Source: Elsinoe ampelina
Lineage: Eukaryota
Reading direction: 5' to 3'
Assembly: GCA_010093995.1 (NCBI GenBank)
Contig: ML992503.1
Span: 118,984-182,983, forward strand
Length of the DNA: 64,000 bases
Shown: positions 4,663 through 51,664 of the stretch, one piece after another
Layout of the letters: each line of letters begins with the position of its first letter
Position numbering within the stretch: position 1 is the stretch's first letter
Translations under genes and position numbers: made by a program
Notes under the pieces: model-generated
What the model was told of the DNA's origin: nothing
The model's input: the letters and a program-made list of their open reading frames with translations, nothing else
The model's database searches: none

Positions 4663-4865
4663 TAATTACGACTAGCAAGATAAGAGGTTAATTACGTCTA
4701 TTCGTTAAGATATTAAGACTTAGAAGAAGAAGAAGAAAAGCTAGTATATAAAGCACATATAATATCGAGAGCGGAGCGGCCGGAAGTCTAGGCTATAATA
4801 CTAAGATTATATAACTAATCTAAACTAGATCCTAACTAAATCTAGTTCGTATCTATCTCGTATTA
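4663..4865 (-). repeat. 3' LTR of the Gypsy element
   Basis: TAATTACG...TCGTATTA (TG..CA termini apparently converted by RIP); near-identical to 16026-16228. Confidence 0.9.
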
Positions 4866-7470: not shown

Positions 7471-7659
7471 TGTTAAGAATATAGCTCTCTCTAGATAGTT
7501 AGGCTAGGAAGTTACATGACCTATAGTTATATAATACTAAGGCCTAGGGATTTTTTCTAGTAGATAGACTCTTTAATCAATTAACTTGTCTATTATCTAA
7601 CTAGTGTGCGGATTAGTTCTATATAATACTCTATCCCTAAATGTGCCTTTCGCTTAACA
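7471..7659 (+). repeat. 5' LTR of Copia copy B
   Basis: TGTTAAGAAT...CGCTTAACA; about 14 nt shorter than the 3' LTR because of an internal deletion. Confidence 0.92.
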
Positions 7660-10600: not shown

Positions 10601-12574
10601 TTAGTAGACTAACCTAGATCTAAGCCCGGCTTAATCCTAAGGTAGACTAATTAGATTAGCCTATTTAGCAAGAAGCGCCTATAGGGAGAATCTTCTTATA
10701 TATCGAGATCCTAAGAGTTAACTCTATTAACCTTATAGAATTCTAACGTAGAGAAGAGCTAATAGTTCAATCTATATTACCTAATTATGTAAGTTAATTA
10801 CTTAAGAGATTAAGAGATAAAGAGTCTAATAATAAAGAGCCTAAGGTAAAGTATTATAGAGTATTTATTACTAAGTGTATTAATTAGCAAGATAAGGTTA
10901 ATAAGATTACTATAATAGCCTCTATTAAGTAATATGTCCTAATTCTAAGAGACTACTATAAGGCTATTACTAATCTAGTTTAGGGAAGCAAGTAGTAGAA
11001 AGCAATTAATGTAGAGCTTAATACTCTAAGATTAAACAACATATAGGAAGAGGTTGTCCCTCTAAAAGGATTAAACTTAGTAATATCTAAGTAGGTCTTT
11101 AATATTAAATACAACACGAATAGCTCTATTAAGAAGTTTAAGGCTAGACTTGTTACTAAAGGCTTCTTATAGAAGTATAGTATTAACTATAAAGACATAT
11201 TTGCACTAATAGTTAGAGTAGATACACTAAGACTGTTCTTTGCTATCGTATATATACTTAACCTTAAATATCATTAGGTAGATATTAATAATGCCTTTAT
11301 AGAATTATTCCTTAGAGAAGTAATTTACATAAGACTACTACCTAGACTTAAGGTCTAACCTAGTATTGCCTTCCGTATTCTTAGGAGCTTATATAGACTT
11401 AAGTAAGCTACTAGAGATTAGAATTAGCACTACATCTCTAAGCTTTTAAAGTTAGGCTTTACTTAGAGCAAAGTAGACCTCTATCTTCTTATATACTATA
11501 ATAAGAAGATTATTCTTTTAGTTTATGTTAATAATATACCATTTATAGTACAAAGCAAAGAGAATATCTAGTAGTTTAAGCAAGAGCTTAGTAGAATCTT
11601 TAAGATTAAGAATCTTAGTAAGGTTAGTAAAGTTCTTAGTATTAAAGTTATAAGAGACAGACAACAAGGAACCTTAAGGCTTAACTAAACCCACTATATA
11701 GATAATGTGCTATAGAGGCTTAATATAACCTCTAATAAGGCTACTCTAACAAAGTAGCTAATAGACAATAAGCTCCCTTAGAGAGCTTAGACTAAAGATA
11801 TAAGATTTAGTAGAACTAAGTACTTATATGCTATTAGAAGCTAGATGTACCTTAGTACTCTAATAAGGCTAGATACTACCTTTGCCTTAGGAAGGCTTAG
11901 TTAGTTTATAGCAGATCTAATAGACAGCTATACTATTAAGATAAAGAGGATATTAAGATATATTAGATTAACTAGAGATCTAAGTATTATATTTAGAAGG
12001 AATAGCAATAAGACTCTTAAGGGATATTCTAATTCAGATTATGCCTTAGATAAGACAGATAGAGTCTCTATTCTTAGATATGTCTTTATGCTTGTAGGTA
12101 GTTCTATTAGCTAGATAAGTAGGAAGTAGAAGTCTGTTTTAACCTCTACTATAGAGGCTAAATATATAGTAATATACTCTTATATAAAGAGATTACAGTT
12201 CCTGTCTTAGTTACTAAGAGATATAGGCTGTTATAAGATAGTTAGTTAGTCACCTTAGAAACTAACTATAAAGGAGTCTTAGAAAGCAATAATAAGATTA
12301 CTCTTTACTACTAAGATTAATAGTAATAATTAAGTAGCTCTTTTACTTATAAAGGAGCTATATACTTATAAAAGGGTAAAGCACATTAATGTTGCTTACT
12401 ATTACGTTAGGAGGCTATAGAGAGACTAGAGAATACAGGTTAAGTTTGTAAGGACAGTAGACATAGTTACTAATAGATTAACTAAGCTATTATAAGGTTA
12501 GAACTTTACAAGATTTGTAAAGCAACTTAGCTTATTATTAATCTAATAGCTTACCTATAGGAGCTAAGTAGGAG

Positions 12575-12777
12575 TGTTAAGAATATAGCTCTCTCTAGAT
12601 AGTTAGGCTAGGAAGTTATATAACCTATAGTTATATAATGCTAAGGCCTAGGGATTTATAAGCTGTTCTTTCTTCTAGTGAATAGACTCTTTAATTAATT
12701 AACTCGTCTATTACCTAACTAGTGTACGGATTAGTTCTATATAATACTCTATCCCTAAACGTGCCTTCCGCTTAACA
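12575..12777 (+). repeat. 3' LTR of Copia copy B
   Basis: TGTTAAGAAT...CCGCTTAACA, followed by TSD AGTAG. Confidence 0.92.
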
Positions 12778-15700
12778 AGTAGGAGCTATTCGTATAGATA
12801 AGAATATCGTCTAGGTAGATCGATATAAAGCGCTCTAGTATGTCGACGAAGTTGTAATTTATAAACCTCTACTAGACTATAGAGGTATTAGTAAGGCCGA
12901 ACGGTATTACTAGCTACTTAAAGTTACCTATACGTATAGAGAACATAGTAAGATCTTTACTATCGACGGAGTTATAGAGGTAGTAGAAGGCTTAATAGAT
13001 GTTAATCTTACTAAACTATTTAGCCTTACTTACGCGCGTAAGTGTTTCTTCGATAAGGAGTAGAGAATAGATATCTTACTTAGTTACCTCGTTAAGGCTA
13101 TAGTAGTTAATATAGAGACGAAGTCCTCTACCTAGCTTACGAATAAAGAGAATAGGTAAGAAATAGCTAGCGGAACTTAGTGTAATAAAGCCTTTATTAA
13201 GATATTCTTAGATAAATTATTCTACTATATCGAGTTCTTCTAGCGATAGGCGGTATAAAGGCTCTATACATAGTAGCTTAGTACTATCTTTAAGTATAAT
13301 ATAGTTGTTAAAATCCGGCCGATACTAAGGGAGCATATTAGATTATTCTTTAGAGAAGATATTAGTAAACTCTTATAACTTCTCTAGGAGAACTACTATA
13401 GGATCTAGTTCTAGCTTAGAGACTATCTAGTAGTAGTCTTCGATATTCTTTACCGAGATTATAAACACCTTATTCTTTTAGTATTTAGCTACTAATACGA
13501 AGGTAGCGGCGCTAATAAAAGTAATAGTTAGCTCTTCTTACTTAGTATTACTTACGTAGGTAAGTACGTAGAAGAACTTATACATTAACTAAGTACTATA
13601 GGAGATTAGCTTAAACTCTCCCTAATTTAGCTTAAAGTTCGACCTAAGAGCTAGTAGTTAATATAATCTAGTTCGCCCTATCTTAGTAGCTAAGCTAGGA
13701 CCTAGTTTACGTATTAAACTAGGACTAAACTAATTCTAAACTAAAACGGCAGCTTTGCCGAGCTAGGTTCCTAGATCTAAGCTAGGCTTAGATCTAGATT
13801 CTAGCCTTTTAATTAGCTATAGTAGCTCCTACTTAACGACTATCGGCGAAAACTCTTCTTTATATATAACTTAGCCGTGCTTATAGTCGATAGTAGCCCT
13901 ATTAGCCTTAAGCTAGCTAAGGCTAAGGATAATGTCGAATTAGCTAATATCTATAATATAAAAGGTAGTAAGGTTATTTAGCTTACTAGAAACGGTAGTA
14001 GTAAGGGGAATACTATATATAACTTACTCTATTAGAACACCGTTATAGGCTTAAAGCTAAATAGAACTAGCTAGTGCCACGGGGCAGCCGAAGCTCTTTA
14101 GCTTATTAAGAACGTTATAATTAACTATAGCGCTAATAAGCGCGCTAGTATTAATAAAGGCTTAAAGTATAATAGTACGCGAGCGGTTATAGGGGTTGTA
14201 AATAGTAATAGGAGTTATAATAGCAAGGATATAGTAGCTAATAACACTATTTAGTAACTATACACCTCCGGATTTATCTCGAATTACTCTTATTTCGCTA
14301 GAGAATAGAACTTGTTCTCTAGCTACTTATTTCTCTAGCTAGAGAAACTAGTAGGCTTATAGTCTATTTCGGGGTTGAACTAAGGCTTAACTAGATCTAG
14401 TTTGTAAGCCGAACTAGTGTCGACCTAGTTACTTAACTTAGCTAAGCGATCCTAGAGCTACTATATCTCCTCTACGGTACTAATACGTACGGGGCGTATA
14501 GTAGCGTAAGTAGCCTTCTCTAAGGCGCTAGCTATATACTTAGTAGAGATATATCTAGGCTTACTGTATATATAATAGGTAAGTACTAGAGCTAGACGGA
14601 AAGGCTATAGAGTACCTCCGGCAATAGAGTAGAAGGTAGGTAGAGCTATAGGCGTAGAGGTAGAATAAGGTACGTAAGTAGGTATAGTAGTAGCGTAGCT
14701 TATAGCTAGCATAGAACGTAAAGCCTAAGTGCGCTTAGTAATAAGGTTATTCTATCGAATATTATAGTTAGTAGCGTAGGCCTTAGTAATAAAGGCGGTA
14801 AGGTTATTAGTATCGTAGTTAACTAGAGTATTATATAGCTCGTTAGATATCTTCTAACGGATCTAGTATAGCTACTTCTCTTTAGCAATCTTAGCGTAAA
14901 GAGCGTACTTATTAAACTCGCTAATAAAGAAGTTAAATATACTATTATACTAGAAGAGGTTAGTAAACTAAGTACGTATAGTAGCCTTATAGTTAGGATC
15001 CTCGAAGCGCTAGGCTAGAAGAGTAAGGACCTCTTCGACGCTAATAACGTTATTACTAGCTAAGTCTATAATAAGGGTATAGGCTTCTCTAGAGAGGCGT
15101 AAGTATAGATAGGTAAACTAGGTGTCTCTCGTAGAGAAATAATCTACATTAGTACGTATCTTATTCCTTATCTAGTACTTAAAGACCTCGAACTACTCTA
15201 GTATACCTATACTAAAGATAGTAGAGTCTAGTATCTTTTCTAATAAGGTAGAGCTATATATAAAAAGGGCTAGTATACTACGCTCTATCTTGTTTCTTAG
15301 TTAATCTACCTTAGCCTTAAGCTCTTAGATTTTGTCTAAGTAGCGAGTAGCTTAGGTAGTAACGCCGTCGGTATAGAACTAAGATACGTCTAGTTCGGAT
15401 TAGAGGTTACTAAGCTAGGCCTAAGTAGTATCTAACTCGTAGTAATAGTAGAGAGCGTTAGTATAAGCGCCTTTTACCTACGTAGTCTACTTATTATAGA
15501 AGAACTCGATATAGTTAAATACGTCTCTTAGTGCCTATATACTATACTCTTTCTATAGCTTCTTAAGGAGTATAGCGTTAAAGAGAGCAAAAAGATTATA
15601 GTAGAGAGAGTAGATAGAGGCGTTATTATTATTAGAGATAGGTTAAGGTAGCTTACTTTAGTAGCGCTCTTCGTTGCTATAGTTAGATCGAGCTATACTC

Positions 15701-16025
15701 GGCGTAGTTAGTCGTAAATAGAATAGTATAAAAAGTTAATATGTAATAAAGGAAATATTAAAATTTTTAGCTAGCGGCCTACTTCCTTTAAGAGTCGTCT
15801 ATAACTCGACTTATTACCTTCTTCTTATATCTTCGAGGTTTGTAGTATTAACCTATATAGTAGTAGCGAGGATCTATTATAGTATACGTAGGAACTATAG
15901 TTATAATAGCTTCTTCTTCGATTCTTCGTAAGTGGTAGTTATTAGTAGTTACGTAAGTAGTAGAATAACTAGATAGTTTAATAGCTCTATTACTCGGTCG
16001 TAGCTTCTTTAAAGTCTCGATATAG

Positions 16026-16228
16026 TAATTACAACTAGTAAGATAAGAGGTTAATTACGTCTATTCGTTAAAATATTAAGACTTAGAAGAAGAAGAAGAA
16101 AAGCTAGTATATAAAGCATACGTAATATCGAGAGTAAAGTAGCTAGAAGCCCGGGCTATAATACTAAGATTATATAACTAATCTAAACTAGATCCTAACT
16201 AAATCTAGTTCGTATCTATCTCGTATTA
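16026..16228 (-). repeat. 5' LTR of the Gypsy element
   Basis: Direct repeat of 4663-4865, followed by TSD TTAGA. Confidence 0.9.
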
Positions 16229-16233
16229 TTAGA

Positions 16234-17100
16234 TAGGTATAATTCTTACTAGTCTTTTACTTCTAGTTTAACCTTAGCTTCTTAAACTAAGCTATAAGAG
16301 GCTTACTATATATAAGCGCTAGTCTAATCTCTTAAGCTATTACTAAGATTATTTTCTTTTATATATCTAACTAGTAAGTACTTAGCTTAGTACTACTACT
16401 ACTCTTAGCTATAGCTATTACCTTCTACTTCTTCCTTAGTAGCGTTTTCTTTACTAGCTACTTTTACTTCTTTAAGACAATAATAACTTTCTTTTCTTTC
16501 TTATTAGCCTTAGTATCTTTCTTCTTCTCTAGCTCTTTCTCTTCTACTAATACTACTAAGTCTACTACCTTAGCTAAATTCTAGCGCGCTACTTATAGGG
16601 TATATAAACTCGATACTATAACTAGTAGTATAGTAGGTTAAGTAGTTAGTATAACTAGTAATAGTATTAGCTATAGAGGAGGCTATATTAAAGAAGATAC
16701 TAGTAAGGCTAGTACTATCTAGTTAACTAGTTATAAGGCTTAAGGTTAAGGCTAAAGAGGTAGTAGCTATAACAATTATATACTATATCTACTATAATAA
16801 GAAGATAGTAGAGGCTATAATAATAGCTATAAATATAGTATCTATAGTTACTAGTATCTAACTAAATATTAATACTACTATAAGTGCTCTATTTTACACC
16901 TATTTAAAAAGGTATAATAGTAAATATTTAATAACGCTAGCTACTAGATAAAAGGTTATCTAGATAGCTTTTAACTATCTCCGGCCTCTAGTCTCTTTAG
17001 TATGTGCTTTACTCCTTCTAATAGCTATAGAGTTAGTGTAGCTAGCTACACTAACTCTGTAGCCAGTTTTATAGTTTAATAGTGTTATCTATTGTCTCGG
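16234..17100. other. Unclassified RIP-degraded sequence, right part, grading into normal GC content
   Basis: TpA-rich and CpA-poor until ~17,050; the minus strand looks like a decayed K/E-rich coding sequence. Confidence 0.5.
17024..17063. repeat. 40-bp near-perfect palindrome at the RIP boundary
   Basis: GCTATAGAGTTAGTGTAGCT|AGCTACACTAACTCTGTAGC, with one transition mismatch. Confidence 0.85.
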
Positions 17101-26019: not shown

Positions 26020-27501
26020 CTACAAGTACTCCTTCGAAGCCGTGCATTGCCCGCAGAAACCACAATCCTCATCGCAGTACCAGATCGATGATCCTGGTCC
26101 GCCTTTACCCTTCTTCAGGGGCACCTTCACCTCCGCCTCCATCTCTGAGCCTGAACCATCCTCGTGCATGAGCACGATTGCCTCCTCCCCTCTATCGTAC
26201 AAAGTGGCACCGAGAGTCGCTGACTGCTCGATCGAACCTCTCGGACGCTCATCCCCTGCACCATCAAAGCGACCCACAGCCTGCTCCTGCTCATCTCCCC
26301 CCATCGTCTCCTCGATGGACCGTCCCCTGAACCCTCTGGACCTATTCGGTGCCTGTCGAATAGCCTCCAAAGTCCCAGACTGGCTGCCCAATCCAACGAC
26401 CACTGATGAATTGTCTCCCACGTCTCCCTCGGACGGTGATGATACCTCAGAAGCTTGCTGGATTTCGTCTGCCGATTTTGCTCCTGCCGTTGTGGATCGA
26501 TAGCGATCCACCTCTGATGCGCTCAGTAGTCCCAGCTGAAATGCCTGAGCTCGTGTTGTTGCGCCTGCGTTTCTCAGAGTGAGATCTGCGGCATCGAGGC
26601 CCACGATCATGGATCCGTGGTCGCTTCCGGTTGCCTCACAGCCGACGTCGTCTTCGGTGTTGGTGGTCCAGGACATATCCGATTGCGTCAAGGTCGTGTC
26701 GGCATCCGAGACCTTCCTCGTCGGCTCTCCCCTCTTCTCCTTTGCCACTCTCGCATCCTCAACGTCATTCCCAGAAGTCGCCATGTCATTGCCCGTAGCG
26801 CTCCTCATCATTGCAACATCCCTACCCACTCCAGTTCTTTCCTTCGTCCCCCTCTCCACCTCCTCCCACAACTCCTTCGTCATCCTCCCATCATACCCCT
26901 CATACAAACCCGGCAAATACACCACATCCACCACCGCATTCCCCAGCACCACCTCCTTCACCGGCCTCGCATAAATATCCCCCACCCACTTCCCCTCCCC
27001 CGTCCTCGTCCACCCACCCCGCTCAGCCACGACATCCCTGAACACCCTCTTCTCTTCCTTCGAGACCGCCGACTCCGCCATCACGCAGCGCTGAAGCGGG
27101 AGCAACCTCTCGCTTCCCCCGAACGTGGCGCGAGCGAGACGGGCTTGCATGACTTGCACCTCCACCGCGTTGGCAAGGGAGACGCCGAAGTGGCGTCGCA
27201 GGACCGTGGTGGCGTAGCGGGCGTCGAAGAAGATCTTGGTCGTGGTGGGAGAGGCGAGGATGGAAGCGAGGGAGGTGCCGTGGGGGGAGGTGGTGGATGT
27301 TGCGCCGCGTAAAGAGAGGACGTCGATGATGAAGGTCTCTTCTGTGGTGGTGAGGTGGATCTGGAGCAGGCTTAGGGGCCGGTCGGGGTCGAGACTTTGA
27401 GGGGTTGTGGCGAGGTAGATGGGTTGGTCAGGAGGGTGGTCGGCGAGGACGGAGAGGAGGCATTGGAGGGCGTCGGGTGTGTCGACGAGGTAGATCGCCA
27501 T
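26020..27501 (-). CDS. DEDDy 3'-5' exonuclease-fold protein (EXD1-like) with degenerate catalytic motifs and a Cys-rich C-terminal tail
   Basis: LSLLQI, TFIIDVLSL, TSLASILASP..TKIFFD.R and RP....L.....DV.YL match the fungal exonuclease family; first in-frame ATG at 27501. Confidence 0.75.
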   Translation of the reverse strand: MAIYLVDTPDALQCLLSVLADHPPDQPIYLATTPQSLDPDRPLSLLQIHLTTTEETFIIDVLSLRGATSTTSPHGTSLASILASPTTTKIFFDARYATTVLRRHFGVSLANAVEVQVMQARLARATFGGSERLLPLQRCVMAESAVSKEEKRVFRDVVAERGGWTRTGEGKWVGDIYARPVKEVVLGNAVVDVVYLPGLYEGYDGRMTKELWEEVERGTKERTGVGRDVAMMRSATGNDMATSGNDVEDARVAKEKRGEPTRKVSDADTTLTQSDMSWTTNTEDDVGCEATGSDHGSMIVGLDAADLTLRNAGATTRAQAFQLGLLSASEVDRYRSTTAGAKSADEIQQASEVSSPSEGDVGDNSSVVVGLGSQSGTLEAIRQAPNRSRGFRGRSIEETMGGDEQEQAVGRFDGAGDERPRGSIEQSATLGATLYDRGEEAIVLMHEDGSGSEMEAEVKVPLKKGKGGPGSSIWYCDEDCGFCGQCTASKEYL

Positions 27502-27858
27502 GCTTTTGAGTGATGTGGTTTGAAGAGGTACCAGTTTGTCCGGCGACCAAGTTGGTCTTATGTACCGCAGAGGGGTGAAAAGGAAAGACAAGCAAGCTTA
27601 CCTCGTTTGCTGTGGTGGTTCGTGAGTTGAGCTTTTCACATGCTGAAGAGTTAGGAGCAAGCGAGACAAACTTGGCCCGGATATGTAGACAATTGATGTG
27701 AATTAAGGAAAGAAGTTGTATGTACCAATAAACCGAGCTTGACCTGCTCTTCTATCAATGCCTTGCCGTAGCTATGCTTTCTCTGGTACCAAACCTGAAC
27801 GCCTGAAACGCAGTCTCTTCCAAGTCGATCCCCTGGGTGGTAGATGCGTATTGCCAAT

Positions 27859-29097
27859 CTACTGCGGAGGGGTCTTTGATGCATCGTCCGGCGACAAGGG
27901 CGGCGAGTGTGCTCCCCGTTGCAGGCTGTCCAGATTCAACACCCACTTCATACGACCCATGACCTCTACCATGTCTTCGGCGAGTTTGACCTTCTCTTTC
28001 TCCTTTTCATCTATGCCGACGCTGAGTTTCCGTGCGCCTTCTTGTATACCTTCCACTTCCAGGTTCTTTGACGTTTCGAATTTGTGCCAGACGTTGAGCA
28101 GCTCGGCATGCATCCTCCTCATCCTCTCGACCTCGCCTCGCATCTGTCCCCCAACCACGTCCAATCTCGCAAGCCTTTTTCTGTCCTCCTCCTTCTGCCC
28201 TTCGAGATCCCGTAGACCCTTGTGTAGACCCGCGATTCTCTGCCTGTACTCCTTGGCCAATTGGACGTGGCTTGTCTGTAAGATCTCTGCATGGACAGCG
28301 CTGTGCCTCGCCTCCTCTCTCGTCACGGCCAGATCCTTCCGTAGACTTTCTACCACTTCATCTCTCTCCTTCTCGCTATCAGCGGCCCTCTTCTCTGCAT
28401 CCTCCCGCCGTGCCTTCTCCGAATCCAGCTCTGCTTTCAACTCCTCGATTTTTCTCTCACGCCTCTTGATGACCGCATCGTCCATACCCTTGATGTTGAC
28501 CAGCCTGGCATTCTCCGTTTCCAGCTTCTCCAATTTTGGTTTCGCCGTCGCAACAGCCCGTGCCAGCTCCTCCCTCTTAGTGATCTCAGCCTTGATCTCT
28601 CGTCGTAGTCTGTCATTCTCCGCCATCAATCGTTCTATGACTCTCCCCGACTTGCCCAACCCAGTGTTACCGAGCCCGTGCCCTCCAATCCATGGTGAGG
28701 TATCGGGTGTGCTCGCGGGTGAATCCATAGAGACTTCCATGGCCGAGAGCATCGAGTGAGTCTTTGGGGTGGCCACATTCGTGATGATTGTGTATTTTGT
28801 GCCGTTTGGTGATGAGGCCGGTGAAGAGTTGGAAAAGAGATGCAGTTGTTGTTTTGGCGGTGTTAATGGGCTGCTGTCGAGTCCGTCCGGGAAGGACATT
28901 AGTGTTTTGCGACGCGGTGAAGCAGGCTCATTGGCGCTGGTGTCGGCGTCGTCGGCGGACGTGTTATTTTGGATCGAGGAAATTTGGGCGGTCGAAGAGT
29001 GGTACGAGTGAGGTCTTGCCAGGGTCGTCGTGGTCGGGGGAACGAGTGACATTGTTGCTGATTGCGCTGCGGCGGCGTCTGCGGCAGGCACGGACAT
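27859..29097 (-). CDS. Conserved fungal coiled-coil protein (She3-like family); 5' end uncertain, possibly with an upstream exon near 29190-29383
   Basis: S/P-rich N-terminus, conserved GKSGRVIERLMAENDRLRRE motif, long heptad coiled coil. Confidence 0.65.
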   Translation of the reverse strand: MSVPAADAAAAQSATMSLVPPTTTTLARPHSYHSSTAQISSIQNNTSADDADTSANEPASPRRKTLMSFPDGLDSSPLTPPKQQLHLFSNSSPASSPNGTKYTIITNVATPKTHSMLSAMEVSMDSPASTPDTSPWIGGHGLGNTGLGKSGRVIERLMAENDRLRREIKAEITKREELARAVATAKPKLEKLETENARLVNIKGMDDAVIKRRERKIEELKAELDSEKARREDAEKRAADSEKERDEVVESLRKDLAVTREEARHSAVHAEILQTSHVQLAKEYRQRIAGLHKGLRDLEGQKEEDRKRLARLDVVGGQMRGEVERMRRMHAELLNVWHKFETSKNLEVEGIQEGARKLSVGIDEKEKEKVKLAEDMVEVMGRMKWVLNLDSLQRGAHSPPLSPDDASKTPPQ

Positions 29098-29689
29098 GAC
29101 TGCCTTGTGTCTCTCAGTGTTTACTTTTGCAGCGATCAATCTCTTTGGCAACGACACGACACGTCCATGTACAAAGATCTTCTCAGCAGGTATAGACAGT
29201 CTCGGAGGATTTGGAAAGGGTTGAATTCGCATCTTCATCATCTGTTTCATCATACAAACGGCCGTCCATTTTGGGATCTGCAGCCGGTTGGGCCAACAAC
29301 ACTGGCACATCAAAAGAGAGATCTTCAGGTACAAGGGACATTTCGAGTTTGGCTGACCGTTCACCGGCCCGTGGAAGATCCATCGAAGTCTGTTTCTTTT
29401 CTTCTTTCAGGCTTCTTCTTTTCACATCGAGACGTCGGTGGCTGGGGAGTCAAGATGGTGAAATGAACCTTCGGACAAGATTGTCTGAAGCACGATTGAA
29501 CAAGTATTTCGAGTGCGATGGAGCCTGCAGGCAGTGCAGGCAGGACCTGTCATCGCCTGGGCGGCGACGTGTGTTAGCGCCCGGAGGAAGGTCATCTCCG
29601 CAAGGCTAAAGTTCAGCTCGACAGGTAGGCCACACATCTCCTGCTGCACCATCAAGTTTCCATCAAAGATCCATATTCACGAGTCGAGA

Positions 29690-30901
29690 ATGTCTTTGCC
29701 GGTGTCTGTCGGAGAGATTCTTGAACTTATTAGACTCGCTAAAAAAGGCTACGACGCTATCAAGGATACCAATGACAAGATAAAGCAAGCTGTACAGCAA
29801 GTGCTCGATCAGCAGTACCTCGTCCAAGACATTCAGCGCATCTTGGATGCCGATACACAACTGCAACGGAGCTCGCAGGATGGTCAGCGCACCCTCTTGA
29901 TGAGAGAGAAGGTTGACCAAGTGCATCGTTCGATGCAGTTGGTCAACAAGCTTATTGATGAATACAAGTCTCATCGAGGGTCTTCCGGGTCTGTTTCGGT
30001 CTTTTACAAAAGCAGATTCAACATGAGTGGCAAGATGACAAAACTAGAGACAGCTTGCGCATTAGTAGCCACGAACGTTGGGGCATTGCATGCATGGCTC
30101 TCGAACCTCACCACGTCCTATACTCAGGAGATTCACAGTGTGGCTCACAGACTAGGCACGGGCATGCAGGATGTCCAATCAAGCATGCAAGACATCCTTA
30201 GAGCTGTCAACGGATCGCGACAAGTCGATGCTGCTCTGATCGATTCACAATCGGCCAGTATTATTTTCATCGACAAAGACAACACCGGCCGCAGCAAGGT
30301 CGCAGAAGCGTACGCAATGCTGGTCAACCACTGGACTTCCGCAAATCCTGATCGATGGCCAGTAAAGCGTGTTAGCTCCGCAGGTTTGAATGTTCGTTGG
30401 CACAATGAGTGCACAGACTACTATGATAAGGTCGAGATGAAGCTGAAGGACGATGGTCAAGAGCGTCCGTCATCCGCGGCTATCGACGCGCTTTTCGACG
30501 ACGGCGAGTTCGCCCACGAAGCATTCAACTCGACCCTGAAGGAAGCGGTCCTCAAGACAAGATCCCGTGGGCTGCCTTCCGCCATTTTCCAGGATTACAA
30601 GTATGTCATTACTTTCACTCGGAGTCTCAAAAAGGCGCTGGTACAACTCAAGGAAGAGATTGGGAAGAGCAACCCTGAACATGAGCCAAGAGACATGGGC
30701 CAGATAATCTCGCTTGGAAGCTTTGGTCAACAAACGAAGACCGATATACTCCATCCAACGACAAAAGGCAAGGATCCGGCCGCCGACCTCGCGAATTGGC
30801 GTGCAAGGATCTCTCTCATCCAAGCGGCTTACAAGAACTTGTTGGAGCAAGAAATGGGCTGGAGGCCACCGGTGGCACAGCCGATGTCGACTACACTTTA
30901 A
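29690..30901 (+). CDS. HeLo-like/SesA-type N-terminal helical domain fused to an LMW-PTP/ArsC-like domain with a D-x5-R loop (paralog 1)
   Basis: Starts MSLPVSVGEILELIRLAKKGY; C-terminal IIFIDKDNTGRSKVAEAY, VSSAG, DYKYVITF, IISLGSF and DILHP correspond to LMW-PTP fold elements. Confidence 0.75.
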   Translation: MSLPVSVGEILELIRLAKKGYDAIKDTNDKIKQAVQQVLDQQYLVQDIQRILDADTQLQRSSQDGQRTLLMREKVDQVHRSMQLVNKLIDEYKSHRGSSGSVSVFYKSRFNMSGKMTKLETACALVATNVGALHAWLSNLTTSYTQEIHSVAHRLGTGMQDVQSSMQDILRAVNGSRQVDAALIDSQSASIIFIDKDNTGRSKVAEAYAMLVNHWTSANPDRWPVKRVSSAGLNVRWHNECTDYYDKVEMKLKDDGQERPSSAAIDALFDDGEFAHEAFNSTLKEAVLKTRSRGLPSAIFQDYKYVITFTRSLKKALVQLKEEIGKSNPEHEPRDMGQIISLGSFGQQTKTDILHPTTKGKDPAADLANWRARISLIQAAYKNLLEQEMGWRPPVAQPMSTTL

Positions 30902-30909
30902 TCTTCAAC

Positions 30910-31175
30910 CTATACTGATATCCGCAACTGCTCAGTCGTGCCAGCATGGAGGAGATGAAGCTGACGAAGAAGAGGCTGCCAATAAGCAATGGCAGATATC
31001 TTGGGCCCATAGACTCCAGGTGAATTGACTATCTCCCAAGTGCTCATGACGATGCAGAAGGAGGCGAGGACAAGTAGAAGGGACTTTCGTCTGCTATCCA
31101 TGCTCCATTTTACCGTGTGGCTTGGTTCCTCGTACCCGTCCATCTCATTGCCGTCGTGTGAGGCCAAGTCCATGG
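30910..31175 (-). pseudogene. Possible relic of the 5' end of an APC-family (GABA/choline-type) amino-acid permease
   Basis: SLLLVLASFCIVMSTWE resembles TM1 (S.LGF....M.TWE); a shifted frame gives FFVSFISSMLARLSSCGYQYR, resembling SLAE.AS....GGQY.W; then truncated. Confidence 0.35.
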
Positions 31176-31585
31176 CTTCTGAAGGCTGCCCATTATCCCG
31201 AGCATGGCTGATGTCAAAATGATGCCCACGATGACCTCGGCTAGCCAAATGGGCCGTTTGCTTTTCCCGGCTCCTTATGCAACAACATGGTATTTATCAT
31301 TTGGACCATCGACTTTTTTTTTTTCGGCGTGCCTGTCTCTGTTTTTTGTCACATGATGCATTTGTCGCTACTGTAATACCACGATGGCGCAAAAGCTAGT
31401 GGATGGTTGGTGGCCGTCATGCAGTCAGCGCGGGCGCAGCCACAGCTTCAGCCCGACGGGTTCTAAAATTGAGGCAACAATGATGATAAGCAACAAGTAT
31501 CTTGTTCATCTCCGATTTCCATATCCACTTTTCATGTCCTGGACCTGCTAGCTAATGCAGTTGGCTGTACTCAGCACATGACAAC

Positions 31586-32770
31586 ATGTCTTTGCCGGTG
31601 TCGATTGGGGACATTTTGACCCTGGTGGACATTGCTAAAAGCGTCTACGAAAAGGTCAGGAAAGTCAAGGGTCAAATCGAAAAGGCAGGCTCAAAGATCA
31701 TTCGACTCGAAGGATATCTCAGAAATCTTCACTTTATACTCGTCAAAGACAAAGGCATCGGCCAGAGTGCACTCCGCAAAGATCAGGTTGCCGAGATGGA
31801 AACCATGCTCAAGGAGACTTACGAGGACGTGGCAAAATTGACTCGATTGCTGCAGGATTTTCGGGACAAGAAAGGTCCATGGGACACGCAATGGGCAAGT
31901 AGCACAGCGCACAAGATATACTGGGCTACTGGTGGTGGAGCAAAAGAACTGGAGGAATTGTCAGAAGACCTCGAAGAGAAGGTGATCGAAATTGACCGCT
32001 GGATCGGGCAGCTCAATCTTGCCATTACGCAGCAGATTCTTTCAAATCAGCTCAAGCAACAGATGAAACTAACACAACCACCGACGCAGCAATTGCCCAC
32101 TGCGTCTTCTTCGAAGCGTACCGGCGTCAGCATCCTGTTCGTCGACAAGGAAAACACAGGGCGTGGCAAGATTGCAGAGGCGTATGCAAAACTTGTCAAT
32201 CAATGGACCAGCCCCAGTCGCCAGAGTTGGCCCGCAGGTATCGTCCATTCGGTCGGTCTCAACGTAAGGCGACGAAATCAGTGCCTTCAATACGTTGAGA
32301 AACTCGATGTCAAGCACTTTCTGGATGGTAATGATACTCCAGTGGACCTGGCCATGCAGGCACTGTTCGACAACAAGCTCTTCAATCACCCTTACAAGGC
32401 AAAAATTGAGGCGAGCGTCAGGAGCTCGCGATCCCGGGGCCCTGAGCTCTCTCTGTTCAAGGAATACGACTATATACTGGTCTTCAATCGTCAAGTCGAG
32501 ACAAACATGGTGCGACTACGGCAGGAGCTTGTCAAAGCAGGTGGACTATCGGTAGCCCCCAAAGGAAAGGGGCAGATCAAGCTGCTTGGGGAGTATGGCA
32601 ACTCGAAGAATGCGGTGATATACCACCCAGTCGAGTTGAAAGCCATCAAAGGCGAGCTGGAGAGGTGGCAGAAGACAGTGTCCATGATCAAGGTAGCGTA
32701 CAAGGGTTTCTTGAAAAAAGAACTTGGATGGGAGCAGCCAACGCCAAAGGCACAAGGGGTAAAGTCGTGA
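31586..32770 (+). CDS. HeLo-like/SesA-type N-terminal helical domain fused to an LMW-PTP/ArsC-like domain with a D-x5-R loop (paralog 2)
   Basis: Starts MSLPVSIGDILTLVDIAKSVYEK; contains KIYW...KELEEL; C-terminal ILFVDKENTGRGKIAEAY, VHSVG, EYDYILVF, IKLLGEY and VIYHP; clear homolog of 29690-30901. Confidence 0.8.
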   Translation: MSLPVSIGDILTLVDIAKSVYEKVRKVKGQIEKAGSKIIRLEGYLRNLHFILVKDKGIGQSALRKDQVAEMETMLKETYEDVAKLTRLLQDFRDKKGPWDTQWASSTAHKIYWATGGGAKELEELSEDLEEKVIEIDRWIGQLNLAITQQILSNQLKQQMKLTQPPTQQLPTASSSKRTGVSILFVDKENTGRGKIAEAYAKLVNQWTSPSRQSWPAGIVHSVGLNVRRRNQCLQYVEKLDVKHFLDGNDTPVDLAMQALFDNKLFNHPYKAKIEASVRSSRSRGPELSLFKEYDYILVFNRQVETNMVRLRQELVKAGGLSVAPKGKGQIKLLGEYGNSKNAVIYHPVELKAIKGELERWQKTVSMIKVAYKGFLKKELGWEQPTPKAQGVKS

Positions 32771-33245
32771 TGGGCAGTTGATGATCATCAAGCGCCGATT
32801 TCGGGGGGTCTGGATCGACATGTGAAGCTCGAACAGACTGTATATATGAAGCTTGACACAAACTGACAAGGGAGCACACTGGACTTGTGAGAATAATGGT
32901 ACAATCCACGACCCTCTTTCGACGAACCCACGCCCTGTGAAAATAATATCTAGCATGCTATATACAAAGCTGGATTGCCCGGCGTGTTCCGAACCGCGAT
33001 TGAAACATGACGACGCCCGATTCGTAAAAAGTCCGGGGAAAGCTGGAGAAAAAGCGGGTCTCAGCTTGCCCCGCAGTGTCACGAGAGCTCCTTTGGGTGT
33101 TGCTCGTTGTTCCTCCCACTTCCACCTGTTCCCTCGTTGGCCAGGGGTCTTTTCTATCGTCTGACTCCTCCGAAGCTCTCTCTTCCTTCGTCACACAACC
33201 AATACACATTTCACAAACATCAATTGATACTTCAATACCGTCACA

Positions 33246-34241
33246 ATGAGTGCAATCGCTGAGGAGAATGGCGATGCCGTTCCAGAGATCAAAGTCCTCT
33301 TCTGCTTGTACGACAACTTTGACACCCTCGACGTCGCCGGTCCATTAGAGACATTGGGTCTGGCGGTCCATGACACCGACAGTAAGTCACCTCTTCTCCA
33401 CCATTGATGCTTCACTTCGCTCCAGGAGAGATGCCGACCTCACATTGCATGCCCATCCCCACCTCTGCCCTACCCAGACACTATGTGAGAATGGTGCTGA
33501 CCTCACATCACAGAGCGCAAGGCCTTCAAAGCCATTTTCGCTGCTCCCGCCGAGCACACCGTCTCTCGCCAGGGTGCCTCCTTCCGTGCCCACGTCGACT
33601 ACAAGGAAGCCGCCAAACTCCTCCCCGACGTCGATGTTCTCGTTGTTCCCGGCGGTGACTACGAATCCGTCATCAAGAACAAGACCGAACCTCTCAACAT
33701 CGTCAAGAACTTTGCCGAATTGCAGAAGAAGAATCCCGCCCGCGAGCGTACACTCTTCTCCGTCTGCACCGGAGCCTTTATCCTCGCCCAGCAGGGTATC
33801 CTCGCCGGCCAGTGTGCTACCACTCACCCCGACTTCTACACCAAGTTCGAGATCCTCTGCAAGAGCGTCACCCAGCGTGACATGACCGAGCGTACCGATG
33901 TCATGGAAGAGCGTTATGTCGTCAACAACCCTCGCTTCGACCTCGGTGACGAAGATGAGAACCCATACATCAGGACAAGAAAGGACCGTCGTCCAAGCAA
34001 CGCCAGGAAGGGCAGCAACTCCTGGAAGCAGAGTAATACCAGACGCGAAAGTAACGCCAGGCGTATGAGCTTGGCTTGGGGCGGGCTAAGAGTCATCACC
34101 TCCGGAGGTATCACCACTGGTCTGGACGCGGCCTTGTACCTGGTCAGTGCAATGGTCAGTCTCGAGTCTGCCAACGAGGTGGCCAGGATCATGCAGTATG
34201 AGTGGCACAAGGGTGTTGTCGTCAAGGGCGTTGATGTCTAG
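33246..34241 (+). CDS. DJ-1/PfpI (ThiJ) family protein (2 exons; intron 33382-33513)
   Basis: FDTLDVAGPLETL, DVLVVPGG, FSVCTGA (nucleophile elbow), ATTH, VITSGGITTGLDAAL; GTAAGT...CTGAC...CAG intron. Confidence 0.9.
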
Positions 34242-35137
34242 ACTGGCAATATGCTTTTCCGTGGGAAATTACAGATCGTCCAGACACGGGGGATAGATCA
34301 CGTGAGCCGGCCAGCTTTGACAGAAATGATTGAATGCAAGATGTAAAATATTCCCACTATACCCAAGTGACTTTGTTGCCCTCAATTGCGTGGTTCATGA
34401 GGAGCGTGGACTTGGTTGTTTCTGATCATCACATGGATAGGGTTCAGGAGACGTTTTACAAAGTTACCGCAATTGAGTGCTTCAGCTATTTTGGCTCCAC
34501 CTCGGAGCTTGGTCCAGTATAGCTGCCACTCGGAGTAGTCACTGGGCGGAATATGAGCTGCTTCGGCCGTGCTCAACACATGTGACATCAACCTACCTCC
34601 GGGGACTTACCTTGCCCGCCATCAGTCGCGGCAGGGCAGCTGATGACAACCATCCATCCGATCTGTCTACCCCAGCATCTTCTCCGACACATCCATGACC
34701 CGGCTTCACATGGTCATGGGTCCACCCTGGGCTCAGTTTCATTCCTTCTGTGTCCGTACCCGCCGAGCTGTGCACTACACGTCAAAAACAACAACTCGTC
34801 TCCGTGAACTAGATCATGTCCACGTGCAGTGATCTCATTTCCGATTCACGCGACCAACCAGTCCCGACCCCTGTTCTTCCCACCTCCCCTGAAGCCCTAT
34901 ACCACGAAGCCCAAACACATTGTCTCGAACCTACCCTCCAGCCCCAGCTATACCATCACGCACGACAACAACGCCCCTGACGTCTTCCTAACTCGCAAGC
35001 AGCAGAATGTATATCTTCCGAAACCCATCCTCCGCTCCACTCATTCTCTCTCAGAAACACATCCCTCCAAAACACATCACCGTCCAACTTCTCCCCATCA
35101 CCTCCTTCTCTCTCAACTCTCCTTTCCAGTCAACAAC

Positions 35138-47272: not shown

Positions 47273-50200
47273 TCATGGCCGGTTCGCCAGCTCCTTGATC
47301 AGCGGCACCAGCTTGCCAATTGAATATGGCTTACACACCACATCATCGAACCCAGCCTCCTTTGCCGTCGTCACCTGCTCATGTCTCGCATTGCCCGTCA
47401 CAGCGACCATGGGCACGTAGTCCAGCTTCTCATCCGCTTGCATCTCTCGAACATGCTTGACACATGTCAAGCCATCCATGACCGGCATTTCCAAGTCGCA
47501 AAGTACCACGCTGATGGGTGTCAAATCGGCATCTCGACTCCCCTTCCAGAGTTCGGACTTGCGTAGTCGTTCCAAAGCTTCCTCACCATTGTCTGCAGTG
47601 ACCGTCTGGAAGCCTGCTCTTTTGAGCTGTCGCACCAGTACAGTCTGGTTGATCTTGTTGTCCTCGACTACCAAGACAGTCACCTTCTTGTCGCTGTCCG
47701 TGCCGTCGGTGTCGACTGGATCAGCTTGTGAGATTGCGGACAAGACTGGGCTCTTGATCTCTTTTAACTTGTAGCCCGGGATCTCGGCAGCTGGCGATTT
47801 CGGGTTCATCCGTGCTTCTTCTAGTGACGAAGCAGACTCCGCGTTCGTCGGCATATAGCCCTGTACGTAGAAAGCGAATGTACTTCCTTCTTCCACCGCC
47901 GACTTGAGTCCAATCTCTCCTCCATGCAGCTCAGCCAATTCCCTCGAGATGAAGAGACCAAGCCCAGAACCTCCATACTGAGTATGCGTCCGCGGAGAAG
48001 CCTGTTTGAAACGACCAAAGAGCTTATTAGACTCTTCCGGCGTCATACCAGGGCCAGTGTCAACAATCGAGTAGTACATGTAGACAATCTGATGATCAGC
48101 CCATCCTGGCAGACTCTCGAGGCTGTTCTTCCGCCGATTGCCAGATGGAAACCATGCTACCTCGAGCGAAGGAGGTCTCTCGGTCGAATTTTTGCAATTG
48201 ATCTGAAGCCGCCGGTGTGGTCTACCTTTCAAGAACTTGACTGCGTTACCGATAAGGTTGATGAGGACTTGAAGTACTCGACCAGCATCCATCATGACGT
48301 TTCCGTTGGTGAAGCTATCCCTCTGATTGAATGAGACATCGATGTTGGAGGCTCGAAGTTCACTATTGTAGATCTGTACGGCTTGTCGGGCTACAGACAT
48401 TGGTTGTGCTTCAGTGGGGGCAAGCGTGAGCAGATTCGAGTCGAGTTTCGAGATAGTCAGGACATCGTCGATGATTTGTTTCTGGTGGTGACCGCAGTAT
48501 AGAATTGTGTTGACTGCATCGAGTGTCGCTGTCAATTCTTCCTCAGTCGGTGATCGAGACGTTCGTTGCGCAGCAGGGTCTATCAATTGAGACGCTTCCT
48601 CTGCACACTGTATGATCGCATTGAGTGGATTGCGCATCTCATGTGACACCATATCTGCAGCTTTGTCAGCCTTGTTCTTTCGATTGAGACAAGTTGGTTT
48701 TACCCATGAAATTCTCTTGTGCTCGCTTTGCCTCCAGTGCATCAGTCAGTCGTGTAGCAACTTCCCTTTCATGAGCTCGATGTACAGTATTGTCGATAAT
48801 CACACCAGTCACCGATTTGAGGTTGCCGTCTTGATCCGTCTCAGCGAAACAAGATGAGCTGAGGTATCCGCAGTCGTCGTCATCGTCTACACTACCTGTC
48901 GTTGGGTTCCGGCGTACCCTGAACTCGAATTGGGCATGATTCGTAGCGTGGTAGGCAAGCATCTGCCACTTTTCATCCACCATCCAGAGGTCTTCCGGGT
49001 GGATGAAGGAGCGCCACAGCCGATCGCCTTTCGATTTGTAAGGTATACCAAGAAGCTCGTACCATGCTTGGTTTGCGAAGAGTATCTCCCCAGTTGGTCC
49101 AAATGTGTAGACACCCACCTAAGCAAGTCAGCAAAGCGTCCATGGGATGACTGTGGAAAGATTACTGGTGCATGTTCGGCAAAGCCCATGAATTGCATGG
49201 CGCTCTTCTCGGCCTCCCTGCGCTGCTGCGCTAGCTCTTTGGAGAGCCTCTGTTTTTCCAAGTGAGCCTCTTCGACCGAGCTTTCCATATGTTTTCTTTC
49301 CTCCTCCAGCATGACCAGTGAGGATGCAGCCGTTTCAATTTGCCGAGCGAGCAGGCTGATAAAAGCCTGGTAGTCTTTATTAAAAGGTCTGTGGTCTTGC
49401 ACACCAAACACAACCCAGGCTTCTTGGCGCGCAGATGAGAGGTGAAGAGGGACAACCAGAGCCCTCGATTCCTCCGCTAGAGGTGCCGTCTCGTCCAGCT
49501 GGGACGGTTGTTGCTTCCAGAGGTCTGCTGTGCGAAGCACAGTGCGAAGCACAGAGGGATCGGAAGAGACCATAGATCGTTTCATGGCGAGAGCGATGCC
49601 GGTTGTCTCGGACAAGTCGATTGAAGGCGGCCAGGCACCTGACTCGTGCTGCCGCCCTATTGTACCTTCGCAAATGAGTTTCTCTTCGTCGCGCGAAGGA
49701 GTACCCTTGTTAGGATCTTGTGAAGCGAGGAATCCACCACGAGAATATACTGCGGCGAAAGGGACTTCAGAGCCCGCGAATTCAAAGGAGTGGAGCACGC
49801 TGTCCCAGAATGAAGCCAGTGATGTTGCTGACGATGTGGCCTCTCCAATTTGTAACAGGTTTGCCATCCGACGCTGCGAAATTATGTGTCCGCTCGCTTC
49901 GACTGCACTGTTATAGACACCCAGGACACGACCTTCCGAATCCTTGATCGGAATGAATAAATAGGAGAAAGAAGCCTCCTCCATGCCGTGGTCTGATCTT
50001 TTGAGCGTGGTCGAAGCGTTCTGATGTCCTCTGGTCTGACCGGTGAACTCGACATCTTTGACAAGGGCTTCAAAGAATGGCCAAAAGGCAGCAAAAGGAA
50101 GCTTTGCTGATCTTCCCATGGCCGCCGGGTGCAGCGCCCCGATCAGGGTGGGATATGCTTCGTTGTACAGCATGCTGCGTTGCGAACCCCAGTGTATGAC

Positions 50201-50761
50201 GACTGGATCTGGTGAAGAAAGCGCCATGGATACAGTGTCGCATATCTCTGGTGACCATGAATCCGGATGTCCGTAAGCTGTAGCGCTCCAGTCGACGCTG
50301 TTGAGGAGTCGGTAGTGTTCTTCGGAGATGCATCCTGAATCGCGTGCTATATCGAACTCATTTCTGCGATGGGAGTCTGTGAAGCGTTGAGTGGCAGGCG
50401 TGCCAGTGAAGATCCGCCACCGGTCCTGGTATACGTTGAGGTACCAATCGATTTCCTGGTAGTTGTGTACAGCTCCAGGTTGAGCGCGATGGATATATTG
50501 AAGCCATTCCGAACTCGAGTCGTGGCTTCCTACGTGACCATTCGTATCAGCAGTAGAGTTGAATAAAGAAGAGTGGGCAAGGTAAGCTTGATTCGCAAAC
50601 TTTGGGACGAGGCGTAGACGATTTGTTTGTGCCGTCGATTTAGTACTTGATGTGGGTGTATCTATAACAAACACCGGTCGTGAGTCTGCTGCGAGGTACC
50701 CAAGAAGGTCAGCCTGTCGTAAACCCTCTTCCGAGCTGTCAGCGGAGATCCGAGAGGCCAT
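47273..50761 (-). CDS. Hybrid sensor histidine kinase (PAS/GAF-like, HisKA, HATPase, receiver; introns 49119-49165 and 48655-48703)
   Basis: H-box FMDMVSHEMRNPL after splicing, N-box QVLINLIGNAVKF, DTGPG, GGSGLGL; receiver VLVVEDN, DLEMPVMDG, KP. Confidence 0.95.
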
Positions 50762-51664
50762 GTGCGGCCTTCATTAGATGCGGATAGGTGGAAACAGTGT
50801 TGAACGCTGAAGGTTTGCGGCTCCACGGCAGGTCGGAGGGTCCAAGGGGTCAATGGGAGTCGAGAAGGGGCACTGCACTTGACGCGGGATCTGCGGTTGT
50901 CCTTCGATTGCTTTCCTGGCATTCTGGAACGCTTCGATCGCGATGCGGGAAGCACAGTTCGCGGGTGAGACGTCAGAGACGGACTCTGCTCAAAGAAAGA
51001 TAGAGAGGCGAATTCTGTCCCAATCACAGATACATTCTCCAGATCCAGATGGAATCAAGTAACCTTGAAATTGTGGTGATTATTCTGAGTTCTGCCACAG
51101 CGGGCTACAGCGATGATCGACGGCGGATTAACATTGACCATCATTTTGTCGTACCACGCCTCAAACCTGGCTTGAACAGTATCGATTCCAGGCCGGTAGG
51201 TCAAGGGGAAGTTTGTGAAGCGTATACAGCAGTTACTTCCCTTCCTACATGGCCGCGAAGATCCGAAGTGGCCTGAAGACTACAAAGTCAAACAGGTAGG
51301 TTGAAAATAGTCGTACAAGTATGCAGTACATAACAGGATAGCCCACGCCCTCCTCAACAGCTACGTAGTTGACGAATGGCTCCAGATCCTCGTAGTACCA
51401 ATCCACGAGTAGGTCTGGGTCGCAGACAATGGCGAGAGGAGGTGGTATAGTTTGCAATATAACGTCGTATGGGGTTTTCCATAGTGTCGGTTTCTGTGCA
51501 GGCACACAAGTAGCATGATGGCATATGCGTTGAGAAAGACGAAAGCTGCCACGATGAAATTTTCCAGAGCAGAAGTAAATCCAAAGATTCAAAGTTCGTA
51601 ACAAGAATGCATGAATATACACGTATCGCTATCATCACTCATTACACCCTTCCCAGCCGTCACC

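Follow-up and report, generated by a model that had tools for sequence, protein, structure and literature searches.

In animals and plants, MLKL starts with a helical bundle of the HeLo/MLKL class, which a long helix connects to a C-terminal pseudokinase; this domain stems from a phospho-signalling enzyme, lacks its canonical catalytic residue and holds the four-helix bundle. In fungi, all-helical N-terminal bundles of the SesA/HeLo-like (HELL) group are carried by NOD-like receptors (NLRs) and by the amyloid-controlled executioners HET-S and HELLP; among the presumed effectors of fungal NLRs they form the largest class, and what is understood of their control comes largely from NLRs and amyloid signalling. 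Low molecular weight protein tyrosine phosphatases (LMW-PTPs) and ArsC enzymes (ACP1, LTP1, Primo-1, pI258) form a third group, built around a phosphate loop (P-loop). Passages of three sources (PMC2559854, PMC7772506, PMC13216928) describe Cys-loop pseudophosphatases, such as STYX (Cys to Gly) and the D2 domains of receptor PTPs, as proteins that keep the fold and act as binders or regulators. Here we describe a tandem pair of paralogous genes, A and B, in a 64,000-nucleotide stretch of the Elsinoe ampelina genome (contig ML992503.1, positions 118,984 to 182,983 of the forward strand; the window), whose products (P0001 and P0002) appear to bring these systems together: a SesA/HeLo-like helical bundle is followed by a long helix with a short disordered linker and by an LMW-PTP-derived domain in which the catalytic Cys is replaced by Asp.

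Both proteins share with MLKL the order of their parts and a C-terminal domain without its canonical catalytic residue. They differ from it in that the C-terminal module is a phosphatase fold, where that of MLKL is a kinase fold, and in that no upstream activator is known; the likeness would consist of the architecture together with a remote homology of the N-domain. The all-helical N-terminal bundle recalls the SesA/HeLo-like effectors, although NACHT, NB-ARC, repeats and a C-terminal amyloid motif, as found in fungal NLR and amyloid effectors, are lacking. With the LMW-PTPs and ArsC the C-domain has in common the fold, the Asn, Arg and Ser of the loop, the Ser-Ala-Gly segment and a (F/Y)D(Y/F)I strand, whereas the nucleophilic Cys is Asp in nearly the whole family, the second loop Cys is missing, P0001 and P0002 have His in place of the general-acid Asp, an insertion of about 50 residues separates strand 2 from strand 3, and the phosphatase fold is fused to a helical N-domain of 175 residues. 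Like STYX, the D2 domains and fungal Ltp1 variants, the family keeps a phosphatase fold and has lost the catalytic Cys; unlike them, its loop is not degenerate, ranks with the most strongly conserved segments of the protein and has one fixed replacement, Asp. By analogy with MLKL, we class the pair as putative HeLo/MLKL-class effectors with a pseudoenzyme-like partner domain.

The assignment of the C-domain rests on structural models and on sequence profiles. AlphaFold2 (AF2) models built with the family alignment reached a mean pLDDT (predicted local distance difference test) of 86.6 for P0001 and 88.0 for P0002, and predict a four-stranded Rossmann-like fold, which in P0001 begins with a strand (189-195), a loop and a helix (201-216). 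Superposition (VIA) on Drosophila Primo-1 (7cuy_B) gave Z scores of 18.5 for residues 188-390 of P0001 and 19.5 for residues 180-381 of P0002, with a root-mean-square deviation (rmsd) of 2.1 Å over 152 of the 153 Primo-1 residues; the scores were 18.4 and 18.9 for yeast LTP1 and 13.8 and 14.5 for pI258 ArsC. Exclusively LMW-PTP entries occupied ranks 1-21 of a Foldseek search with the C-domain of gene A (E from 2.7e-6). The profile of 61 family members matched human LMW-PTP (E 2.8e-8), placing the family consensus 'silFvDpyNegrSvvAeay' opposite 'sVLFVCLGNICRSPIAEA' and 'Ildp' opposite the general-acid motif 'IEDP' of the human enzyme. Pfam LMWPc (PF01451, cutoff 23.2 bits) was matched at E <= 0.01 by 27 of the 61 aligned full-length members, and reached 20.8 bits (E 4.9e-4) in P0001 and 17.9 bits (E 0.0037) in P0002, while a search of PDB sequences with the single P0001 sequence gave no phosphatase, the best match being Spx (E 0.24). 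Taken together, models and profiles show a domain with the predicted LMW-PTP fold that descends from LMW protein tyrosine phosphatases. The segment of about 50 residues that leads from strand 2 to strand 3 and has no LMW-PTP counterpart contains conserved residues of its own (G256 in 50/61, P260 in 52/61, F269 in 59/61 and the K280 column in 50/60).

The P-loop lies between the first model strand of the C-domain and the following helix in P0001, and the D, N, R and S of the family align on the Cys, Asn, Arg and Ser of the human CxGNxCRS loop. Residues were counted over 157 proteins aligned to the family profile, each denominator being the number of proteins aligned at that column. The nucleophile column contains Asp in 109 of 115 proteins, together with Glu (2), Gly (2), Ala (1) and Ser (1), and never Cys. 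The loop reads D-x2-N-x2-R-S, with Asn198 in 103/115, Arg201 in 112/123 and Ser202 in 105/123, and the supporting segment is nearly invariant (Ser230 in 131/132, Gly232 in 128/132); two further columns, Arg293 (99/131) and Gly294 (123/131), are also conserved. By this count the Asp-for-Cys replacement is a family trait and more than chance, and the P-loop and the Ser-Ala-Gly segment can be seen from the alignment to stand under strong purifying selection. At the general-acid position the residue varies (D 20, E 15, H 10, N 9 and R 9 of 105). An earlier reading of the DNA made from the sequence alone (the sequence-only reading) had proposed a SesA/HeLo-like N-domain and a C-domain of the LMW-PTP fold, with the catalytic Cys changed to Asp and the Asn and Arg kept; all of this was borne out, and the homologue survey that it had suggested found the Asp nearly invariant. 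It had also described the general-acid Asp as His, which holds for both window proteins and does not extend to the family.

A loop geometry that is conserved, a Cys that is always replaced by Asp and a general acid that varies together argue for a function that has been conserved and is not classical catalysis. Few parts of the aligned proteins are as well conserved as the phosphate cradle with its support network, a pattern that is neither that of a decaying relic nor that of a Cys-dependent phosphatase. We infer that the C-domain is not a classical Cys-dependent phosphatase and would be a ligand-binding or otherwise non-canonical P-loop module.

The same columns could also describe an active enzyme that works without Cys. 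The Asp would then be the nucleophile, forming an acyl-phosphate, or the general base for an attack by water, the N-domain would only target or oligomerise the protein, and the substrate would be something other than phosphotyrosine, defined by the conserved 50-residue insertion. In support of such chemistry, a module that only binds should accept Ser, Ala or Gly at the position where the Asp is invariant, the Asn, Arg and Ser are retained along with it, and the insertion carries conserved residues (G256, P260, F269 and the K280 column); the KH fusions described below would suit an enzyme acting on nucleic-acid phosphate. A C215D mutant of PTP1B has reportedly been characterised both functionally and structurally, and is said to keep residual activity. 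On the other side, the general-acid position is not conserved and no metal-binding motif is apparent. We know of no natural P-loop phosphatase of the LMW-PTP fold that uses Asp, and the full-text literature search found none. Weighing both sides, we consider an enzyme of this kind, with such a substrate, unlikely.

The N-domain is predicted as a helical bundle (approximately residues 7-112) that continues into a long helix and then into a linker with pLDDT below 50. The AF2 helices are at 7-24, 29-39, 42-54, 62-94, 104-112 and 115-173 in P0001, and at 7-24, 30-54, 65-93, 106-115 and 117-163 in P0002, where a Q-rich linker follows; in both models the last helix would take the place of the MLKL brace helices, with a packing of low confidence. 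Pfam SesA (PF17107, cutoff 26.3 bits) matched P0001 with 18.7 bits (E 0.002) and gave no match to P0002; among the 61 members it was found in 26 at E <= 0.01. PF17111, formerly named Helo_like_N, also matched P0001 (E 0.038). Other relatives are more explicit: P0093 reaches 33.8 bits with SesA, which is over the cutoff, and P0105 matches MLKL_N (E 5.4e-6). The N-domain profile of the family aligned by hhalign to the SesA domain of P0093 with a probability of 97.0 (E 9e-11) and to the N-domain of P0105 with a probability of 96.7, and the named Atlas clusters nearest to the N-domain of P0002 carry SesA (21% of members) or PF17111 (29%).

Superposition (VIA) on MLKL (4btf) gave Z scores of 8.5 (P0001, rmsd 2.8 Å) and 11.9 (P0002, rmsd 2.5 Å) over 100 residues, in a range (Z below about 13) that is unspecific for helical bundles; the same limit applies to the MLKL N-domain 6ux8 (9.1 and 10.4 for P0001 and P0002, respectively), AtMLKL3 (8.3 and 9.7), the CC-R domain of NRG1.1 (9.2 and 11.1) and the coiled-coil (CC) domain of Rx (9.9 and 9.2). 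According to passages of PMC4986451, sesA and HeLo-like domains formed overlapping sets that have been combined, and passages of PMC9815663 locate the matches of SesA profiles on MLKL-like domains. The profile comparisons, with the models beside them, show that the N-domain belongs to the SesA/HeLo-like group, a class to which the membrane-attacking domains of HET-S, HELLP and MLKL also belong. A match of the family profile to the CC domain of ZAR1 (E 0.0056) was set aside, coiled-coil viral fusion proteins scoring alike. In the 61-member alignment, seven proteins start with Met-Gly, and a simple N-myristoylation pattern is matched by four; P0001 and P0002 begin with Met-Ser.

An exhaustive profile search retrieved 155 cluster representatives at E <= 1e-3, 65 of them at E <= 1e-30, and a word-index search with the 61-member alignment returned three proteins, none of them new. 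The nearest Atlas clusters are labelled Eukaryota, most commonly Ascomycota, and the eight named hits come from Elsinoe (five), Tothia, Diaporthe and Vermiconidia; the family appears to be restricted to Ascomycota. Both domains lie within one profile match in 67 of the 157 proteins, and the 61-member set consists of these 67 minus the six longest or most irregular. Another 32 proteins bear the C-domain with at least 110 residues in front of it: 21 of them have the same N-domain (probability at least 95%) and two are intermediate. Scanning 35 variant relatives revealed a C-terminal KH domain in seven (E <= 0.01), and in four of these the match exceeded the cutoff of Pfam. KH is an RNA- or single-stranded DNA-binding domain, and its bearers (P0102, P0131, P0111, P0123, and also P0149, P0108 and P0114) belong to a distant branch of the Asp-type family; those that are aligned and reach the loop all have the Asp. 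P0123 joins a SesA-like N-domain, the phosphatase fold and KH in one protein, and P0154 has the N-domain only, with a ZZ finger.

These fusions bear on a reading in which the C-domain would be an inert scaffold, the Asp filling the anion hole and pairing with the loop Arg, so that a ligand-free interaction module would be attached to an N-domain serving as a generic adaptor; its role would be unrelated to cell death, for example in RNA or signalling scaffolds. The KH and ZZ partners would fit this, as would the co-conservation of Asp and Arg (an internal salt bridge), the structural ranking of the N-domain, for which bacterial IncA is the best match and many unrelated helical proteins lie at Z 8-11, and the housekeeping character of the neighbouring genes. 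Cys-to-Asp replacements occur in non-catalytic rhodanese/Cdc25 modules; the literature search retrieved no passage stating so. Two things speak against a scaffold: the profile evidence links the N-domain specifically to SesA and MLKL_N, beyond helical bundles in general, and the family has kept everything that gives the phosphate cradle its open shape, namely the Asn, the Ser and the Ser-Ala-Gly network. A scaffold with such a role, in our estimate, is rather unlikely.

The reading that we prefer, although with somewhat less than even confidence, is by analogy with MLKL that a non-classical P-loop module gates a membrane-directed helical bundle. The P-loop module would bind a ligand or otherwise change its state (bound, unbound or modified), this state would control the exposure or oligomerisation of the N-terminal bundle, and the released bundle would act on a membrane, following the same logic by which the MLKL pseudokinase holds its four-helix bundle. 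A more specific version, in which the proteins would be MLKL-like executioners of ascomycetes whose Asp-type LMW-PTP-derived regulatory module frees a membrane-attacking SesA-type bundle upon phospho-ligand binding or slow Asp-dependent turnover, we regard as doubtful.

Several observations weigh against gating of a membrane-directed bundle, and two of them carry most of this weight. The first is the presence of KH domains in distant relatives, which points to nucleic acids and not to membranes; the second is electrostatic, since a carboxylate at the nucleophile position would disfavour a phosphate dianion, so that a phospho-ligand sensor is not the sole reading of the loop. Furthermore, gating requires a defined packing between the domains, and the predicted template modelling scores (pTM 0.59 for P0001 and 0.62 for P0002) leave it without a confident prediction. 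Both window proteins are under the Pfam cutoffs of SesA and of LMWPc, and the N-domain was undetected in nine of the 32 further bearers of the C-domain. IncA outranks MLKL for both models (Z 12.2 for P0001 and 13.4 for P0002), and many designed helical proteins match the bundles as well. Finally, membrane attack has been demonstrated for HeLo and HELL domains and not for SesA, as passages of PMC12881547 indicate.

The combination of LMWPc or LMW-PTP with a SesA/HeLo-like domain is undescribed in the full-text literature searched, which did not extend to subscription literature or to some 1.7 million PMC articles; the same search returned no description of an Asp-type LMW-PTP domain. The view of the sequence-only reading that the architecture was new stands within these limits. 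Passages of a 2026 survey of fungal pseudophosphatases (PMC13216928) describe Ltp1 proteins without the whole motif, and its supplements could list members of this family. By coupling a SesA-like domain to a phosphate-loop module, the family may offer a simple single-protein system for asking what switches such bundles on, and for phosphatase biology it amounts to a natural experiment, in which the loop geometry is kept while the Cys is always Asp and the general acid varies. If the more specific version, that of MLKL-like executioners, were true, these would be the first cell-death effectors gated by a phosphatase fold, and they could also represent natural Asp chemistry within a Cys-loop phosphatase scaffold.

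The coordinates of the two genes, their domains and other features are collected in the table below. Both genes were found, as announced from the sequence, to be intronless, co-oriented open reading frames (ORFs) for proteins of about 400 residues, without internal stops, each ATG being the first in its open frame. Contigs of four public sequencing runs, none annotated as RNA on record, were compared with positions 27000-35000 of the window. A contig of run X1 over 29663-31301 spans gene A colinearly with 0 differences and 0 gaps, and another over 31552-32795 does the same for gene B. The contigs are called RNA-derived because those of three runs (X1, X2 and X3, from two studies) join 33381 to 33514 across a 132-nucleotide GT..AG gap in the next gene, of the DJ-1/PfpI family; they give neither strand nor expression level, and gaps in coverage between genes A and B were not taken as evidence. 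The X1 contigs agree with two separate intronless transcripts that have short leaders. As the proteins are small, intronless and expressed, they should be experimentally tractable.

Features of the locus, in window coordinates, with the evidence on which each was placed
Feature	Positions	Strand	Basis or remark
Gene A (copy A, P0001), 403 aa, intronless coding sequence	29690-30901	+	ORF; colinear run X1 contig
Gene A, predicted N-domain, aa 1-173, bundle and long helix, SesA/HeLo-like	29690-30208	+	AF2, profiles, VIA
Gene A, C-domain, aa 188-392, predicted LMW-PTP fold	30251-30865	+	VIA, Foldseek, family profile
Gene A, P-loop D195-K-D-N198-T-G-R201-S202	30272-30295	+	Profile alignment to human LMW-PTP
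Gene A, His355 at the LMW-PTP general-acid Asp position (DP motif)	30752-30754	+	Profile alignment
Gene B (copy B, P0002), 394 aa, intronless coding sequence	31586-32770	+	ORF; colinear run X1 contig
Gene B, predicted N-domain, aa 1-163, bundle and long helix, SesA/HeLo-like	31586-32074	+	AF2, VIA
Gene B, C-domain, aa 180-383, predicted LMW-PTP fold	32123-32734	+	VIA superposition, motif positions
Gene B, P-loop D187-K-E-N190-T-G-R193-G194	32144-32167	+	Motif positions
Gene B, His347 at the general-acid position	32624-32626	+	Motif positions
Small ORF between the paralogs, 87 aa, one hydrophobic stretch	30910-31173	-	ORF list
Upstream gene, ORF, no Pfam family	27859-29310	-	Differs between strains
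Intron of the downstream DJ-1/PfpI-family gene, 132 nt, GT..AG	33382-33513		Contigs of three runs

P0001 and P0002 align end to end with 30% identity (E 7e-66), the N-domains being identical at 22% (39/175) and the C-domains at 38% (82/215) of the aligned positions, so the description of the two as strongly diverged paralogs was correct. The motifs that had been quoted for them were all found (MSLPVS(V/I)G(E/D)I, I(I/L)F(I/V)DK(D/E)NTGR(S/G)K(V/I)AEAY, S(A/V)G, Y(K/D)Y(V/I)..F, LG and HP), as was the identical run formed by their first 17 nucleotides, which is the sole exact match of at least 12 nucleotides between the genes. Identical residues use the same codon in 48 of 113 cases, which gives a 17-nucleotide run a chance of about 0.03, and the run is explained as a by-product of the conserved MSLPVS start, no feature in itself; gene conversion or a regulatory element at this place was rejected for these reasons.

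Orthologues of copy B were found by the word-index search in E. batatas (92%), E. fawcettii (D9617_6g092740, 68%) and E. australis (61%), and an orthologue of copy A only in E. fawcettii (D9617_6g092760, 42%), unannotated genes elsewhere being possible; hits in Tothia, Diaporthe and Vermiconidia have about 30% identity. In a maximum-likelihood tree of the 61 full-length members (IQ-TREE quick search, LG+G4), the six Elsinoe proteins form one clade with an SH-aLRT (Shimodaira-Hasegawa-like approximate likelihood ratio test) support of 99, and the other 55 members fall outside it. Within the clade, the copies A of the window and of E. fawcettii are sister to a group in which copy B of E. australis branches first and that of E. 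fawcettii next to the pair formed by the window and E. batatas. The duplication is therefore lineage-specific and predates the split from E. fawcettii, and the tree shows the pair to have arisen by tandem duplication within the Elsinoe lineage; the tandem layout is kept in E. fawcettii, where B corresponds to tag 092740 and A to tag 092760. For copy A the path from the window to E. fawcettii has a length of 1.25 and for copy B one of 0.43, and among the 36 positions conserved in at least 80% of the 55 non-Elsinoe members copy A deviates at eight and copy B at two. Five of the eight deviations are common to copy A and its orthologue, including the Asp304 column, which is Lys in copy A, and the loop Asp, Asn and Arg are present in both copies. 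By these sequence measures copy A is the fast paralog, with about three times the rate of copy B, and copy B keeps the ancestral pattern.

The pair had also been suggested to act as sensor and executor, and the locus to serve in non-self recognition. An obligate heteromer of A and B, or a polymorphic het-like locus under balancing selection, would be consistent with the tandem order kept in E. fawcettii, with the asymmetric evolutionary rates and with the RNA-derived contigs that cover both genes. Against it, A and B agree in their complete architecture and in the P-loop, the duplication does not reach beyond the Elsinoe clade, most of the aligned family lies outside that clade, and the copy A orthologue was detected in one other Elsinoe species against three for copy B. 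Runs X2 and X3, which come from another study than X1, show 0 differences over the covered parts of genes A and B, against 10 differing positions and a 6-nucleotide insertion behind 29047 in the upstream gene (window 27684-29137) in the same runs. No NACHT, NB-ARC or HET domain and no amyloid partner were found among the 33 other window ORFs scanned with Pfam, and neither P0001 nor P0002 contains a NOD domain or an amyloid motif, each protein ending with the phosphatase-fold domain. Nothing points to an obligate two-component device or to a polymorphic recognition locus, and we hold such a heteromer or het-like locus to be very improbable. Copies A and B are most likely two versions of one single-protein device, either redundant or sub- or neo-functionalised, and not its two halves.

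The other window ORFs that were scanned encode a range of functions, with a GH67 glycosidase, a 3'-5' exonuclease domain, DJ-1/PfpI, PI-PLC, a short-chain dehydrogenase, a GAF/histidine-kinase/receiver protein, a sugar transporter, Sds3, an RRM protein, a proteasome ATPase and a WD40 protein. The small ORF between the paralogs matches no Pfam family at E <= 0.001 and sits on the minus strand under the X1 contig that spans gene A; in E. fawcettii a single locus tag (092750) is numbered between the two orthologues. The segment is either the 3' untranslated region of gene A or a small antisense gene, and may or may not belong to the module.

Two further observations concern more distant parts of the window. 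Positions 1-17000 form an AT-rich block (GC content 28-36% in 2-kb windows, 40% at 16-18 kb) that adjoins the gene-rich part (GC 50-58%) and contains no ORF of at least 130 codons; lying about 12 kb upstream of the pair, it looks like a repeat region degraded by repeat-induced point mutation (RIP). On the minus strand, adjacent ORFs at 47276-50770 carry GAF, HisKA, HATPase_c and receiver domains and probably represent a single phytochrome-like hybrid histidine kinase whose gene an intron interrupts.

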